Shown in pieces: positions 28,549-36,815 of a stretch of 64,000 nucleotides of DNA (positions are counted from its first letter, which is position 1; each line of letters begins with the position of its first letter). The translations under genes were made by a program, and so were the position numbers. Source of the stretch: Escherichia coli (GTDB lineage: Bacteria; Pseudomonadota; Gammaproteobacteria; Enterobacterales; Enterobacteriaceae); the NCBI RefSeq assembly GCF_003790525.1, contig NZ_CP033635.1. The stretch is one strand, 5' to 3'. Under the pieces are notes generated by a model. That model saw only the letters and a list, made by a program, of their open reading frames with translations. It was not told where the DNA came from and ran no database searches.

Positions 28549-28666
28549 TCGGTGCGGCTGGCCTACGTTCTCGCACCGACTCGTGGGCCTGATAAGACGC
28601 GTTAAGCGCCGCATCAGGCAATGTGCACCCTACGGTGGATGCGGCGCGAGCGCCTTATCCAACCTA
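28549..28666. repeat. REP/BIME cluster between yiaT and the GH127 gene
   Basis: Palindrome gtcggtgcgg...ccgcaccgac plus REP-type units gcctgataagacgcgttaagcgccgcatcaggc and gatgcggcgcgagcgccttatcc. Confidence 0.65.
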
Positions 28667-30634
28667 CGGATGGCAATGCTTTTCCTCATTCACCCAGATC
28701 CGCATTTCGCCTTCACCCCGGTTAGCCCAGCTAAACCACGGGATAAATGTCAGAGTTTGCGGCTGGCGTTTGGCTGGGGCATAGTCGTAATGCCACAGCG
28801 GTTGCTGCTCTGGATTGCTCTGTTCATACCGGTAACCCGGTGCCTGGATTAAGATCTTATGGCGGAACAATCCCTTGCCTTCAAATGTCGTAAATGGCGC
28901 ATCGGCGGGCAGCCACAGGTTATGCAGTGACTCGCCGTTGTCGGCCTGTTCCAGGCAATACACCAGCGGGCCGCGCTGAATCGCCACTTTTCCGGCGACG
29001 TGACGCACCAGCGGGTTACCGTAAACGCGACGTACCGGCATTGGCAACGTCAGATTCAGCGTGTCGCCCTCCTGCCATTCGCGGGTAATGTGCAAATACC
29101 CTTTACGAATATCCTGCTCGACCTCTTCCCCATTCAATGTAATCTGCGGCTGTGTGCACCAGTCCGGCAGACGTAAAGCCAGCGTATGACGCACCGGCTG
29201 GGGCGATTCAACCGCAATTGTCACCTGTTCCTGCCACGGATAGTTTCCGCTAACCCGCAGGCGCAACGTGCCATTTTCTACCGGCACTTCCATGCTGTTT
29301 CCTGCGTATATGTTGATATACAACGCATCTTCACGCGGCGTGTAGAGATAATGACCAATCGAGGTTAGCACGCGGGCGATATTTGGCGGACAACAAGCGC
29401 AACCAAACCAACGCTGGCGGATCGGCTTAACGTGATCGTAGATATGGTTGAATTTCAGCGATTTTGGATGTACTTCCAGCGGATTCACATAGAAGAAATG
29501 TTTGCCATCCAGCGCCATGCCGCCGAGCACGGTGTTGTACAGTGCGCGCTCCATCACATCGGCATATTGACTGTCGCCTTCCATTTCCAGCATTCGCCGG
29601 GCGAACATCATCAGGCCGATGGAAGCACAGCTTTCGGCGTATACCGTGTCATTCGGCAGATCGTAATCGCTGCTGAACGCTTCACCGCTGCTCTGTGAGC
29701 CAATGCCGCCGGTAATATATAACTGACGCTGGGCCATATTGTTCCACAGCCGCAAGCAATCCTGACGCTTGCTTTCATCGTGACTTAAACGCGCGAGATG
29801 CGCGACGCCGGTCATCAGGTAGACAAAACGTACCGCGTGACCAATGGCGGTTTGCTGCTGTGCGATGGGCAAATGTGCCTGGCTGTAGGCTTTGTCTTTC
29901 ACCATCCACGCCGGGCCGTAGGTGTGCCAGTGCGAGGTCTGCCCGCGCTTTTCATATTCCTGGTCGTAATAGTGCGGTTGCGCACCACGCTGTTCGACAA
30001 AATAGTTCGTCAGCGCCAGGTAGCGCGGCTCTTCGGTCACTTCATACAGGCGCATTAGTGCCAGTTCAATTTCCGGGTGACCAGGATAACCGTGTAACTT
30101 ACTTTCATCTGGACCAAATACGCTGTCGATATGATCGGTCAGACGGCAAACCACTTCCAGCAAGCGCCGCTTGCCCGTAGCCTGGAAGAAGGCGACTCCG
30201 GCTTCAATCAGATGACCCGCGCAGTAAAGTTCATGACACTCCGCCAGATTGCTCCAGCGTTCTTCGGGCGCTTTTACCGTAAAGTAAGTATTGAGATAGC
30301 CATCTTCACACTGGGCGGAGGCGATCAGTTCAATCACCTCGTCGGCGGTTTTTTCCAGTTCGGCGTCCGGCTTCTGGCACAGCGACCAGGCTACCGCTTC
30401 CAGCCATTTGGCGACGTCGCTGTCCTGAAACACCATCCCGTAAAATTCACCGTCTTGCAGTCCTGCGGCAATGCGAAAGTTTTCAATCGCATGGCTGGGT
30501 TCCGCTTCTGGGATACGATCGTTCAAGGCGTCCCACTGATAAGGAATCACCACATCGCGGACCAGTTGTTGGTACTGACCGAGGAACGGATCGCTGACCG
30601 TCAGTTTATGCAGATCGACTTCCGAAATGTTCAT
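28664..30634 (-). CDS. glycoside hydrolase family 127-like protein (DUF1680; putative beta-L-arabinofuranosidase-type)
   Basis: About 656 aa from ATG at 30634 preceded by taaggag; no signal peptide; conserved Cys-rich C-terminal region; family assignment from memory. Confidence 0.6.
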   Translation of the reverse strand: MNISEVDLHKLTVSDPFLGQYQQLVRDVVIPYQWDALNDRIPEAEPSHAIENFRIAAGLQDGEFYGMVFQDSDVAKWLEAVAWSLCQKPDAELEKTADEVIELIASAQCEDGYLNTYFTVKAPEERWSNLAECHELYCAGHLIEAGVAFFQATGKRRLLEVVCRLTDHIDSVFGPDESKLHGYPGHPEIELALMRLYEVTEEPRYLALTNYFVEQRGAQPHYYDQEYEKRGQTSHWHTYGPAWMVKDKAYSQAHLPIAQQQTAIGHAVRFVYLMTGVAHLARLSHDESKRQDCLRLWNNMAQRQLYITGGIGSQSSGEAFSSDYDLPNDTVYAESCASIGLMMFARRMLEMEGDSQYADVMERALYNTVLGGMALDGKHFFYVNPLEVHPKSLKFNHIYDHVKPIRQRWFGCACCPPNIARVLTSIGHYLYTPREDALYINIYAGNSMEVPVENGTLRLRVSGNYPWQEQVTIAVESPQPVRHTLALRLPDWCTQPQITLNGEEVEQDIRKGYLHITREWQEGDTLNLTLPMPVRRVYGNPLVRHVAGKVAIQRGPLVYCLEQADNGESLHNLWLPADAPFTTFEGKGLFRHKILIQAPGYRYEQSNPEQQPLWHYDYAPAKRQPQTLTFIPWFSWANRGEGEMRIWVNEEKHCHP

Positions 30635-30644
30635 CTTGTGCTCC

Positions 30645-32045
30645 TTAAGGCTGTACATGACGCTGACGCAGGTCGCTAGCAATGCGTGACATCATAGGGT
30701 TATTGAGTTTGCAAAAGCGGATCGCCATCGCCAGCAGCAGGTGGAACAGCGCAGGCAGCAATGTTTCCATTGCTGTGATCCCGCCAAGCGAACTGGCGGT
30801 CTGGTTTTCCACGCCTGGCTGGTAGGCGACAAAAATAAACAGCAGGCTGATGATCCCGGCGCTGGAGGCCCAGGCCAGCTTGATGAAAAACAGATTGAAG
30901 GCGAAGTTCATGCCGGAAGAACGTACGCGGGTTTTCCACTCGCCGTAGTCATCGGCAAAGGCCATCAATGAGAAGTGCAATGGCAATGTGAAGCCAAGAA
31001 TCACGCCATTACCGAGGATCACCGCCAGCCACAGCGTTTGATAAGCCGGGCTGGAGGGCAGGAACCACATCAACACCGCCAGCGCAGCGAGGAGCAGGTT
31101 GGTGTAGTAATAAATTTTGACGGTATCGAAACGCCGCGTTAACGGGCTGACAATCACCGAGCCGATAATGGAGGCGAAGGTGACCATAGTGAAGAACAGC
31201 GACGTGTAGCCCGTACTGCCTTGTAAGACGTAGGTAATGAAGTACATATACCCACCGCCGCGAATATTAAAGACGTTAATCAGCAGGAAAGACATGACCA
31301 GCATCAGCAGCAGTTGGTCGTTGTTCCGCAGCCCGGCAAGATGTTCGCGCAGGGTAAATTTCCCCATTGTGGAGAGTGGCACCCGTTCACGAACCCAGAA
31401 GAAACAGCACAGGAACATCACCACAGCGATGGCGCACAGCACGCCGACGCCCAGTTGATAGCCGCGCGCGGCATTACCCTGACCGAAGAGATCTACCATC
31501 CACGGTAAGCCTACCGAAACCAGAAATCCCGCCACGCCGCAGAGAACGAATCGCCAGGACTGGCAGGAGATCACTTCATTGTGGCGGGTGGTCATGGTGT
31601 TGATCAGCGCGCAGTACGGCACGTTGATGGCGGTATAACCGACTGAAAGGAGCAGGTAAGTGCCGAACGCCCAGGCGATTTTTACTCCCATGCTGGCATC
31701 TGGCACGGTGAACGTCAGGATGCCGATAATGCCGATGGGAATGGCAATCCACAACTGCCACGGACGAAAGCGCCCCCAGCGACTTTGCGTCCGGTCGGCA
31801 ATGACGCCCATCACCGGGTCGGAGATGGCATCAAACACGCGCAGTGCAATAAACAGCGTGCCGACCAGCGCCGGAGTTAAGCCAAAAACGTCGGTGTAGA
31901 AAAAGGTGAGAAAGTTCATGATCAGGCAAGTTATTACGGTGCCGCCTGCGTCACCCAGGCCGTAGCCTATTTTTTCCCGTACAGATAACGCATCGTCAAT
32001 TTTACCTTTAGCGATATCAGCGGTAGTAATCGGTGTAGAGGTCAT
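30645..32045 (-). CDS. GPH-family (glycoside-pentoside-hexuronide) cation symporter, MFS superfamily
   Basis: 466-aa polytopic membrane ORF; N-terminal GPH-type signature ...[25 protein letters not shown]. Confidence 0.75.
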
Positions 32046-32270
32046 AGATATTCCTCGTGAATAGGGAGCAATTTTTAGTTTTATTGCAATGACATGATTA
32101 ATTCTGCCGTGAACGGGAATATCAACAAGGCGAGAAAAGAGTAAAAAAAGGTGACGATTCCGACCTGAATTTAAAAGTGTGAATTGGATCAGGTGAAATT
32201 AATGTTTTTGATTAATAATCAAAAGGTAATGTGTTTAATCATTAATGAATAAGCGGAAAATTACATATCA

Positions 32271-33086
32271 ATGCTCGAATTATCCATGACGTTACCGATT
32301 AAAGTGCAAAATGGTGGATTATTTATTTCCCGTGGCGTAGGGAGGCATCCGGCAAGGCGGCTGGAGTCATGGGAAATTATCTTTGTCGAAAAAGGTCGAT
32401 TAGCGATTCAGGAAGAAGAGCGGATATTTCTGGTCGATGCGGGAGAGAGTTTATTACTCTGGCCGAACCGACAGCATGTTGGGGTAGAGGATTTTCCCGC
32501 CGATCTCAAATTTTACTGGCTGCATTTTGAGGTTAAAGCGCCGGATAGCGACCCGCGCTGGCTCACTCATCTTAGCGTGCCGCAACAAACTAAGGTTGCC
32601 GATCCGCAGGTGCTGGTGGCCTTGTTTCGCCAGTTCTTAAGCGAACAGGAAAAGCATCAACGCACTCCGGCGCTGGAGTTTATTGTGCTGCTGATTTTGC
32701 AGCAGCTCACCCGTGACGCGCGTCTTGATGAACAGGCCGATGGTGCAGGCACCACCCTTGCCTGGAAAGCGCAGAAACTGATTCGCACGCAATATCACCG
32801 CCCGCTTTCCACGGCGCTTTTAGCCCGCGAGCTGTACTGCAATGCCGATTATCTTGGGCGCGTCTATCGGCGGGTGTTTCATCTGACGTTAACAGAAGCA
32901 ATCCACCGCCAGCGAGTGCGCGAAGCCGAAAAGCTGTTAATTAGCGAAGCGCGATCGCTCACGGAAGTGGCGGCGTTGTGCGGGTTTAATGACGTCGGCT
33001 ATTTCCGGCAGATTTTTCGCAAGCACACCGGTTTAACGCCAGCAGCGTGGAAGCGGCGTTACAGCAAGGAACATATCAATTCGTAG
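32271..33086 (+). CDS. AraC-family transcriptional regulator (sugar-responsive type)
   Basis: 271-aa ORF; N-terminal cupin-like domain, C-terminal AraC HTH; divergent from the transporter gene. Confidence 0.75.
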   Translation: MLELSMTLPIKVQNGGLFISRGVGRHPARRLESWEIIFVEKGRLAIQEEERIFLVDAGESLLLWPNRQHVGVEDFPADLKFYWLHFEVKAPDSDPRWLTHLSVPQQTKVADPQVLVALFRQFLSEQEKHQRTPALEFIVLLILQQLTRDARLDEQADGAGTTLAWKAQKLIRTQYHRPLSTALLARELYCNADYLGRVYRRVFHLTLTEAIHRQRVREAEKLLISEARSLTEVAALCGFNDVGYFRQIFRKHTGLTPAAWKRRYSKEHINS

Positions 33087-33088
33087 TG

Positions 33089-33108
33089 CCGGGGCGATGA
33101 AGCCCCGG
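33089..33108. terminator. bidirectional stem-loop between convergent AraC regulator gene and sgbE
   Basis: ccggggc(33089-33095)/gccccgg(33102-33108) inverted repeat. Confidence 0.5.
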
Positions 33109-33117
33109 TCTGAGAGA

Positions 33118-33813
33118 TTACTGCCCGTAATAGGCATTGGCCCCATGTTTACGCAGGTAGTGCTTATCCAGCAGTTCGTTTTGCATCGCAGGGAGCAGCG
33201 GTGCAAGCTGGCGCGAGAACAGGCCCATATAGGCGCACTCTTCCAGCACCACGGCGTTATGCACCGCATCGGCGGCGTTTTTTCCCCAGGCGAACGGGCC
33301 GTGAGAATGCACCAGTACAGCCGGGATTTGTGCCGGGTTCAACCCACGTTCTTCGAAGGTTTTAATGATCACTTCGCCGGTCTGGTATTCATACTCGCCG
33401 TTGATCTCCTCTGCGGTCATCTGTCGCGTGCAGGGGATGGCACCATAGAAGTAATCAGCGTGCGTGGTGCCCCAGGCGGGGAGATCCAGCCCGGCCTGCG
33501 ACCAGATGGTGGCGTGGCGCGAGTGGGTATGCACAATACCGCCAATTTCGGCATAGCGACGGTAAAGCGCCAGATGCGTTGGCGTGTCGGACGAGGGCTT
33601 TTTGCTGCCTTCCACCACTTTACCGCTGGCTATCTCAACCACCACCATATCGTCGGCGGTCATCACGTCGTACTCGACGCCGGAAGGTTTGATTACCATC
33701 CATTGCCGCGTTTCGTCTACCGCGCTGACATTGCCCCAGGTGAACGTCACCAGATGGTGAGCGGGAAGCGCCAGATTCGCCGCCAGCACGTCGGCTTTTA
33801 GTTGCTCTAACAT
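33118..33813 (-). CDS. sgbE: L-ribulose-5-phosphate 4-epimerase
   Basis: 231-aa ORF; class II aldolase/epimerase fold; recognised as SgbE. Confidence 0.9.
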
Positions 33814-34667
33814 ATAAATCCGGCCTCCTGCATACGCGCTTCAATCCAGCGCCGCGCCTGAATAATCTCCAGCACCGGCTCTTTGGCTTTTTCGGTCCAC
33901 ATCTCAATCAGAAATGATCCGCGATAGTTCAGTTCATGCAGCGTTTTGAAGATGCCAACGAAATCGACGCAGCCTTCGCCAAACGGCACATCACGGAACT
34001 GTCCGGGGCTTTGCTCGGTCACTGGCTGGGTGTCTTTCAGGTGGATCGCGGCGATACGGTCAATGCCCAGTTTCAGTTCGGCGGGAACATCATTGCCCCA
34101 GGCGCTGAGGTTGCCGACGTCCGGGTAGACGGTGAACCACGGCGAGGCGAGCATCTCGTCCCATTTTTTCCATTTGCTGATGGAGTTCATAAACGCGGTA
34201 TCCATAATCTCCACCGCCAGCATTACTTGTGATGCCGCCGCCTGTTCGACTGCCCACGCCAGCCCTTCAGCAAAACGTTGTTGGGTGCCTTCGTCGTGGT
34301 CTTCGTAATAGACGTCATAACCTGCCAGCTGGATGGTGCGAATGCCGAGATCGCGCGCCAGGCGAATCGCTTTACTCATGATTTCCCGCGCCCGTTCGCG
34401 CACTGCCTCGTCCCGGCTGCCAAAGGGAAAACGACGATGGGCAGACAGGCACATTGACGGAATGGCAACACCCGTTTCGATCATCGCAGTGACCAGCGAA
34501 GCACGTTGTGCGGCGCTCCAGTCAAGACGTGAGAGCCGTTCGTCGGTTTCATCCACCGACATTTCGACAAAATCAAAGCCACAGCTTTTTGCCAGCACCA
34601 GCCGCTCCGGCCAGGAGAGATCTTTCGCCAGCGCTTTTTCATAAATCCCTAACGGATGATTACGCAC
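33807..34667 (-). CDS. sgbU: L-xylulose-5-phosphate 3-epimerase
   Basis: 286-aa product from GTG (revcomp of cac at 34665-34667) giving [12 protein letters not shown]...; ORF track extends 30 codons upstream. Confidence 0.8.
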
Positions 34668-35322
34668 GCGCACCTCCCCAGATGGCATCAATTTGTGCAT
34701 GGAAATCGCCAGCCACCTGCGCCGGATTTGCTGCGCCTGCCAGCGCCCGCCCGGCAATAAAGGCTTTCACGCGGATATCTTTAAACAGCGGCAGGTCAGC
34801 AGGGGTAATCCCGCCGGTAATGGAAAGCTCAAGGCCGATATCGGAAAGCGCCTTCATGCGTGCCAGATCGGCCTCGCCCCACTGTTGCCCGCTGGCCTGC
34901 GCGTCGCGACCGCGATGATAAATGGCCTGCCGCACGCCAAGACGATGCCAGTCGCGGGCGTCGTCCAGCGTCCAGTTACCGAACAGCTCTATCTGAATTT
35001 CACCACCGCAGCGTTGCGCCATGGCGTGGCCTTTTTCCACCGTCGCGAGCGGCGCAGCGCAGATGATGGTCATCCAGTTGGCACCCGCGCCAAACGCCTG
35101 TTGTGCGAGCGTTTCACCCGCGTCGGCGACCTTCCAGTCAGCAACGATGATTTTATCCGGGCACTGTTCGCGCAAGGCTTTCACCGCGCCAAGCCCTTCG
35201 TTTAAACAGAGAATGGTGCCCGCTTCGACGATATCGACGCTGCCTTTTAACAGCATCACGTCGCGCTGTGCGTCTTCAAGTGATGAGTGGTCGAGGGCCA
35301 GTTGCAGAAGTGGTCGGCTCAT
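34660..35322 (-). CDS. sgbH: 3-keto-L-gulonate-6-phosphate decarboxylase
   Basis: 220-aa ORF; OMP-decarboxylase-like. Confidence 0.9.
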
Positions 35323-36815
35323 AATGTGTGCTCCTTGATGCGGGCGTGAAAGCCCTCAAGTGCGGCAATGAGATGCTGATAGCGTTGGTATTTTTGTTGG
35401 TAAAGCTGATGTGCGGTCATATCCGGCAGCAGGGTGCGTACCGGGTGCTGTAAATCACGTTGGGCTTCGCTGAAATCGCGATAAACTCCGGTGCCGACGC
35501 GGGCGGCAAGTGCCGCACCAAAGCAGCCGGTTTCTTCCACCTGCGGCAGCTCGATACGCAGACCGCTGACGTCCGCCAGCATTTGCATCCAGACATCGGA
35601 ATGCGCCGGGCCGCCAGTGACGCGCAGGGTGTGCACATCAGTAAAACGTTCGCGCATCCGGTTGAGATGGGTCATATGGCTGAACACCACGCCTTCATAA
35701 ATGGCCTGCAACAGGTGTGCGCGGGTATGAATGGCCTGCATCCCGTAGAAACCGCTGGTCATCTCCAATCCGGCGTTGCTGCCGTACAGGAACGGCAGGA
35801 AAAAGAGATCGCCCCCGGCCTTCGGCAAGCTGGCAACGGCCTGGTTAATCTCATCAAACGAGATTTCTCCCCACTGTGCGGTAAACCATTCGAGGTTGCC
35901 GGAAGAGGTGGGGCTGGCTTCGTGAACGATAAATTGACCATCGTTAACGTAGCGACCATAGACATACGGATGCGCTTCACCGTCACGTAAACCACGGGTT
36001 ATGCCGCTGGTCACCGCCCAGGTGCCCATCACCGCATTGAGGGTAAATTCGTCTTCGATCCCGGCACAGAGTGCGGTGGAAACCACATCAAACAGGCCGC
36101 CGACAACGGGCGTACCCGCTTTCAGACCGGTCAGTGCGGCTGTCTGAGCGGTGATTTCCCCGCAAATTTCGGCAGATCCGACAACAGGCGGCAGGGCGTG
36201 GTTGATTTCAGCGATCCCCAGCCAGTCGGTGAGGCACGGGTCATATTCCTCAAGACTCATGTTGTAGAGGTTGGACTCGGAAATATTGCTCTCTTCGCAA
36301 CCTTTGACGCCGGTTAAACACCAGCGCAGATAGTCGTGCGTCATCATTACGCAGCCAATTTGCGCGTAGCGTTCCGGTTCGTGCTCTTTCAGCCAGCGTA
36401 ACAGCGACACCGGATGCCCGGTCCACAAGGTTTGTCGGGTCAGCGGGTAGAGTTTTTCCGGGATGCCATCTTCCTGCCAGCGACGAACGATTTCCATCGC
36501 CCGGCGGTCCGAGGACAAAATAGCATTCCCGAGCGGCTTGTCGTTTTTATCCAGCAAAAACAAGCCCTTTCCCTGTGCGGAGATACCGATACCCACTATT
36601 TGCTCCCCGCTGACACCAGAATGAGTAAGCAGGGTGCGAATGACAGCCATGCAGCATTGCCACAGTTCTGCCATATCGCGCTCTGCCCAGCCTGGCTGCG
36701 GGCTTAATGCGCACAGCGGCAGGCGCTGCACGCCTGCCTCCCGGCCTTCGCGGTCATACAGCCCGGCTTTCAGCCAGCTACCGCCACAATCTAACCCCAG
36801 CCAGTATTGCGTCAT
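35319..36815 (-). CDS. lyxK: L-xylulose/3-keto-L-gulonate kinase
   Basis: 498-aa FGGY-family sugar kinase. Confidence 0.9.
   Translation of the reverse strand: MTQYWLGLDCGGSWLKAGLYDREGREAGVQRLPLCALSPQPGWAERDMAELWQCCMAVIRTLLTHSGVSGEQIVGIGISAQGKGLFLLDKNDKPLGNAILSSDRRAMEIVRRWQEDGIPEKLYPLTRQTLWTGHPVSLLRWLKEHEPERYAQIGCVMMTHDYLRWCLTGVKGCEESNISESNLYNMSLEEYDPCLTDWLGIAEINHALPPVVGSAEICGEITAQTAALTGLKAGTPVVGGLFDVVSTALCAGIEDEFTLNAVMGTWAVTSGITRGLRDGEAHPYVYGRYVNDGQFIVHEASPTSSGNLEWFTAQWGEISFDEINQAVASLPKAGGDLFFLPFLYGSNAGLEMTSGFYGMQAIHTRAHLLQAIYEGVVFSHMTHLNRMRERFTDVHTLRVTGGPAHSDVWMQMLADVSGLRIELPQVEETGCFGAALAARVGTGVYRDFSEAQRDLQHPVRTLLPDMTAHQLYQQKYQRYQHLIAALEGFHARIKEHTL

Follow-up and report, generated by a model that had tools for sequence, protein, structure and literature searches.

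Among the overlaps found between neighboring prokaryotic genes, the spacing of -8 nt (NTGNNTGA-type) belongs, together with -4 and -1, to the enriched classes (review, PMC12548453). Two models of translational coupling are given in the same review, one of them based on the unfolding of RNA, and coupling by termination-reinitiation is reported from a primary study (PMC6728339).

A closely related described protein is UlaE (SgaU), the L-ribulose-5-phosphate 3-epimerase of the ula ascorbate operon (structures 3CQH-3CQK), which is a paralogue of SgbU with the same TIM-barrel fold family (PF01261), although it is encoded in a different operon under different regulation. The two proteins align from SgbU residue 2 to the C-terminus and show a PLGIYEKA motif near the N-terminus; however, this motif is preceded by six residues in UlaE-type proteins (MLSKQI or MLSKPI; P0046) and by four in SgbU.

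Like the pairs of the -8-nt (NTGNNTGA/TAA) class, sgbH and sgbU are co-directional genes of the same operon, the start codon of sgbU precedes the end of the sgbH stop codon by 8 nt and its Shine-Dalgarno sequence is found inside the upstream gene, with neighboring junctions of -4 (ATGA) and -7 nt. The pair shows the spacing of the class (GTGCGTAA) as well as a true downstream start, as indicated by conservation and by the ribosome-binding site. The strong Shine-Dalgarno of sgbU would also allow independent initiation, and its coupling to sgbH is proposed here from the arrangement of the genes. The GTG start, the product of 286 aa and the 8-nt overlap are already known from public annotation and make up an ordinary operon junction, whose significance is slight beyond annotation hygiene: it is one more case of the known -8-nt overlap class. 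It also illustrates that simply choosing the longest ORF can lengthen a gene by 30 spurious codons where the alternative frame of the upstream gene stays open.

Gene order and reading frames at the sgbH/sgbU junction

The window, which is the whole stretch of 64,000 nucleotides of Escherichia coli DNA that was analyzed, contains the junction on the minus strand, within the yiaK-S (yiaKLMNO-lyxK-sgbHUE) operon, which is under repression by YiaJ/PlaR (PMC6958661). The gene sgbU is located directly downstream of sgbH, whose product matches PF00215, and directly upstream of sgbE/araD, with lyxK and yiaK-O further upstream (Table 1). The label of sgbH in the RefSeq annotation of strain SMS-3-5 is ulaD. 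The gene is the same as sgbU (yiaR, b3582) of E. coli K-12. A scan of the operon for promoters and terminators gave counts equal to the shuffle expectation, with none at the sgbH/sgbU junction. A stretch of 1.7 kb around the junction is 100% identical to the chromosome of E. coli SMS-3-5 (NC_010498.1) and is matched at an identity of at least 90% in 4,856 of the 5,426 complete E. coli genomes.

Table 1. Window coordinates of the genes, junctions and initiation signals around sgbU.
Feature	Coordinates	Strand	Evidence or remarks
lyxK	35319-36815	-	ORF list and RefSeq
lyxK/sgbH junction	35319..35322	-	4-nt overlap ATGA; AAGGAG 8 nt upstream
sgbH	34660..35322	-	ORF list; PF00215 OMPdecase match; RefSeq annotation
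30-codon upstream extension of the mechanical ORF	34668..34757	-	Considered non-coding when read in the sgbU frame; specifies the SgbH C-terminus only
Extended pairing UGGGGAGGUG	34671-34680	-	Duplex with the 16S rRNA 3' end
Shine-Dalgarno core GGAGG	34673..34677	-	5-nt spacer to GTG; inside the last sgbH codons TGG GGA GGT (W-G-G)
sgbU GTG initiation codon	34665..34667	-	Sequence, translation, RefSeq; homologous codon ATG/GTG in 64/80 species
8-nt overlap GTGCGTAA, sgbU start with sgbH stop	34660..34667	-	Sequence, ORF list, RefSeq
sgbU (yiaR) CDS	33807..34667	-	286 codons and stop; translation; RefSeq WP_001361569.1 with identical bounds
sgbU/sgbE junction	33807..33813	-	7-nt overlap ATGTTAG; GGAGG 10 nt upstream
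sgbE	33118-33813	-	ORF list and RefSeq

The sgbH frame ends on the minus strand with ATC TGG GGA GGT GCG CGT GCG TAA, with the TAA stop at 34662-34660, while the sgbU frame reads GTG CGT AAT CAT CCG TTA GGG ATT TAT GAA AAA GCG from its initiation codon and is closed by the stop codon at 33809-33807. The mechanical ORF in this frame starts at TTG 34757, 30 codons 5' of the GTG, and encodes 316 aa; the nearest in-frame stop 5' of the GTG is found at 34769. The preliminary description had placed the GTG at 34667-34665, 8 nt inside the sgbH frame, and on the minus-strand reading these coordinates are exact. It also described the frame accurately, but left unmentioned four in-frame start-type codons between the TTG and the GTG: ATG 34700, TTG 34691, ATG 34688 and GTG 34673.

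Pairing with the 3' end of the 16S rRNA reaches -14.9 kcal/mol at the sgbU GTG, and every other in-frame candidate shows -7.2 kcal/mol or weaker: -7.2 for GTG 34673, at zero spacing, -7.0 as the best pairing of ATG 34700, 12 nt away, -2.4 for TTG 34757, which has no Shine-Dalgarno site, and -1.9 and +0.3 kcal/mol for the others.

RefSeq/PGAP annotates sgbU of SMS-3-5 (WP_001361569.1, 861 nt) from this GTG, with the 8-nt overlap with sgbH. The same start and overlap are annotated in nine other E. coli, one K-12-serotype strain and eight further strains picked across the 93-97% identity range; this supporting annotation comes largely from gene-prediction pipelines of shared logic and is not independent of the comparative argument. 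A full-text literature search (sgbU, yiaR/yiaQ) found no published experimental start-site mapping or N-terminal sequence for sgbU, because the operon is normally repressed, and no mention of sgbU, sgbH or b3582 was found in supplementary files of a tetracycline ribosome-profiling study.

Comparative support for the GTG start

We conclude that sgbU almost certainly begins at GTG 34667-34665 and that its product is an epimerase of 286 aa. Every independent line of evidence puts the start at this codon, and none favors the 30-codon extension. What is shown here is where the start codon lies, together with its Shine-Dalgarno, the overlap and the support from comparison; initiation at the sgbU GTG in vivo, like coupling, is inferred.

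Family profiles were aligned with the 316-aa ORF, in which residue 32 is the residue next after the GTG codon. TIGR00542 matched over its full length with 519.7 bits (cutoff 272.15), and its first position fell on residue 32. NF009689 also matched over its full length (510.4 bits, cutoff 200), with its position 2 on residue 32; therefore, its position 1 falls on the GTG codon itself. The UlaE structure 3CQH was aligned from the same residue 32 (E = 1.9e-107), and PF01261, the xylose-isomerase-like TIM-barrel domain, covered ORF residues 55-307 with profile positions 3-248 of 249 (E = 3.2e-58). Neither the family profiles nor the solved UlaE structure showed any match to the 30 residues upstream of the SgbU start. 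According to these matches SgbU is predicted to be an L-ribulose-5-phosphate 3-epimerase of the UlaE/SgbU family (TIGR00542 / NF009689), and by homology it would catalyze the epimerization of L-xylulose-5-phosphate to L-ribulose-5-phosphate.

The start codon was then compared at the DNA level in 80 species-representative loci, anchored on the P/K-LGIYEK motif, so that the test was independent of gene callers. The codon four positions 5' of the motif is ATG in 52 of the 80 loci and GTG in 12, and the presence of ATG or GTG at the homologous codon in 64 of 80 genomes is beyond what chance would be expected to give. An in-frame stop lies 0-3 codons 5' of that start in 13 of these 64 loci and within 10 codons in 25 of them. 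These genomes leave no physical room for an extension. The GTG is found in Escherichia and, independently, in several Pasteurellaceae, whereas Klebsiella, Citrobacter and Salmonella show ATG as the norm within the same ATGCGTAA junction. The [A/G]TGCGTAA junction is common to Escherichia, Klebsiella, Citrobacter, Salmonella diarizonae and Tolumonas. Across the loci the position of the upstream stop shifts (8-nt overlaps, 1-nt TAATG overlaps and gaps of 1-3 nt), but the sgbU start stays fixed in relation to the protein.

Alignment of the N-termini of SgbU/UlaE homologues, which had been proposed as a check of the GTG start, shows that 104 of the 120 best database homologues share this N-terminus. 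The exceptions were divided in three groups. The first contains short lineage-specific variants, such as MNIIKRRHPLG in Hafnia and Obesumbacterium; the second, alternative predictions with an internal Met at the same position, such as MTFGDLD-MRQHPLG; and the third, proteins fused to SgbH or SgbE by a frameshift. Homologues with a longer N-terminus, named beforehand as contrary evidence, were also sought, and the search gave only lineage-specific differences of 1-6 residues (Hafnia, Pantoea, Vibrio) and a minority annotation of 297 aa from ATG 34700. No sequence conservation was found for these longer N-terminal variants, either of 1-6 residues or of the 297-aa form.

Finally, we studied the mean pairwise variability at codon positions 1/2/3 in ten Enterobacteriaceae loci with the 8-nt junction. 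In the sgbH frame, the values are 0.106/0.078/0.399 for the 102 nt from the in-frame stop to the GTG, compared with 0.064/0.043/0.355 for the sgbH body; since the region before the GTG varies like the sgbH body, there is no added constraint from a second frame. Directly past the overlap the periodicity changes to the sgbU frame, with 0.032/0.022/0.289 in the first 34 sgbU codons. Read in the sgbU frame, the putative extension has a mean amino acid identity of only 0.547; translated as SgbH, the same DNA reaches 0.844, and the first 34 SgbU codons reach 0.972.

The earlier proposal that the GTG is the true start is thus borne out by annotation, profiles, homologues, Shine-Dalgarno and codon-position variability. 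Its companion claim, that the ORF start 30 codons upstream lacks support, also holds: the extension from TTG 34757 shows low identity in the sgbU frame, no profile match and no Shine-Dalgarno site. The open frame 5' of the GTG, with the TTG at -30 and ATGs at -11 and -7 codons, is not translated as SgbU but is the alternative frame of the sgbH 3' end, open by happenstance. Accordingly, the public annotation of sgbU is correct, and the 316-aa mechanical ORF and the deposited 297-aa form are over-extensions.

Alternative starts in the open frame

Initiation at the in-frame ATG 34700, 11 codons upstream, would yield a SgbU of 297 aa with a 41-nt overlap with sgbH, either from the sole start or as a minor second isoform, and we consider it very unlikely. 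ATG is generally a stronger initiator than GTG, and this ATG is found in 11/11 E. coli sequences, in E. albertii, in K. pneumoniae and in several Citrobacter; moreover, the 297-aa form is deposited in nr as a cluster (P0001, 38 member sequences) that starts at the equivalent ATG. However, the ATG is a by-product of the conserved sgbH codons TTC-CAT-GCA (F-H-A), and it is missing in Salmonella diarizonae, K. spallanzanii, K. michiganensis, Enterobacter, Lelliottia and others. The 11 extra residues differ freely even within E. coli (MRKSTLSGEAS or MRKSTPSGEAS among other forms) and are covered by no family profile or structure, and the 33 nt between this ATG and the GTG vary according to the sgbH frame (0.16/0.107/0.358). 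Its best pairing with the 16S rRNA, given above, is also far weaker than that of the GTG.

There is equally little chance, in our view, of dual initiation, in which the GTG would be the main start and a minority of ribosomes would initiate at ATG 34700, giving a SgbU isoform 11 residues longer, with its extension encoded in a 41-nt overlap that would also code for the C-terminus of SgbH. The evidence from comparison speaks against a selected function for this longer isoform; low-level initiation would be compatible with it.

A start at GTG 34673, two codons upstream (MRVRNHPLG...), is extremely improbable. This codon is in frame in SMS-3-5 and in K-12-like strains, but it overlaps the Shine-Dalgarno core (GGAGGTG), which leaves zero spacing; in most other sampled E. 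coli the codon is GCG or GCA, and the start is absent in other genera.

The mechanical start TTG 34757, which is the first start-type codon past the in-frame stop and would give the 316-aa form, has a practically negligible probability and is effectively refuted by the comparative data, because besides the low identity, the missing Shine-Dalgarno site and the in-frame stops already described, the frame is closed 15 codons 5' of the GTG in the species representative of E. coli (L004), and an extension of this type is found in 0/120 database homologues, frameshift fusions aside.

TTG 34691 and ATG 34688 were rejected as starts on the basis of Shine-Dalgarno strength, conservation and frame-specific variability.

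Probable translational coupling and variation of the locus

With the GTG as the start of sgbU, the lyxK/sgbH, sgbH/sgbU and sgbU/sgbE junctions all overlap, by 4, 8 and 7 nt, respectively; therefore, coupled translation of the lyxK-sgbH-sgbU-sgbE block, and of sgbU with sgbH in particular, is most likely. The ribosome that ends sgbH would unfold the start region of sgbU or would step back by a few bases and re-initiate at the GTG; direct initiation at this codon would also be permitted by its strong Shine-Dalgarno. In the minimum-free-energy fold of the junction RNA, the Shine-Dalgarno region is paired with upstream sequence, but this fold is no more stable than those of shuffled sequences (z = -1.07), and therefore carries no weight either way for coupling by unfolding.

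The conserved C-terminal I-W-G codons of SgbH (ATC TGG GGN; window 34671-34682) supply part of the sgbU Shine-Dalgarno. Most Enterobacterales loci retain the TGGGG stretch of these W-G codons irrespective of the type of junction (8-nt overlap, 1-nt overlap or small gap); therefore, its bases may be under a double constraint, from the protein and from ribosome binding.

Within E. coli, the GTG is kept in 10 of the 11 sequences examined, and strain PK8276 shows ATG instead. This ATG-start haplotype was found in 3 of 5,426 complete genomes (PK8276, QML220614 and TUM17668), and GTG and ATG strains have the RefSeq protein accession WP_001296811.1 in common. In PK8276 (locus L087, position 734), the ATG allele also turns the penultimate R of SgbH into H, the residue seen at this position in Klebsiella and Citrobacter. 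Of the upstream codons, ATG 34700 is conserved within E. coli, whereas ATG 34688 and GTG 34673 are not. K-12-like strains differ from SMS-3-5 in that SgbU residue 5 is Q, not P, and in that they do not have ATG 34688. The P5Q change (CCG to CAG, window 34653-34655; L002) falls in the PLGIYEKA motif; the majority of the 80 species loci have P or K at this position, and the Q form heads the cluster P0005, with 2,349 database sequences.

Fused ORFs are also found in the databases. SgbH is fused to SgbU in P0003, P0007, P0011 and P0014, and SgbU to SgbE in P0008 and P0081. In P0018 and P0038 (343 aa) the SgbU C-terminus is replaced by an out-of-frame tail, and P0038 represents 17 deposited E. coli sequences. 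Presumably, the fused and tail-swapped ORFs result from frameshifts at or close to the overlapped junctions, whether genuine or introduced during assembly.

A strain-variable cassette lies between sgbE and yiaT (window ~28600-33100) and contains genes for an AraC-family regulator, an MFS transporter and a glycoside hydrolase of family 127. The full cassette is present in 2,313 of 5,426 E. coli genomes, and the remainder show short remnants. The sgbH-sgbU region (window 33700-35400) has no match in ~570 of the 5,426 complete E. coli genomes. Strain 7_33_80A shows a truncated sgbH next to yiaT, and sgbU and sgbE are absent. In Escherichia albertii NBRC 107761 (L003), a 379-bp deletion, equivalent to window 35265-35644, takes out the 3' part of lyxK together with the 5' part of sgbH, which suggests operon decay in this strain. 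The deletion leaves a lyxK'-'sgbH fusion ORF of 589 aa and does not affect the sgbU GTG or its Shine-Dalgarno site.
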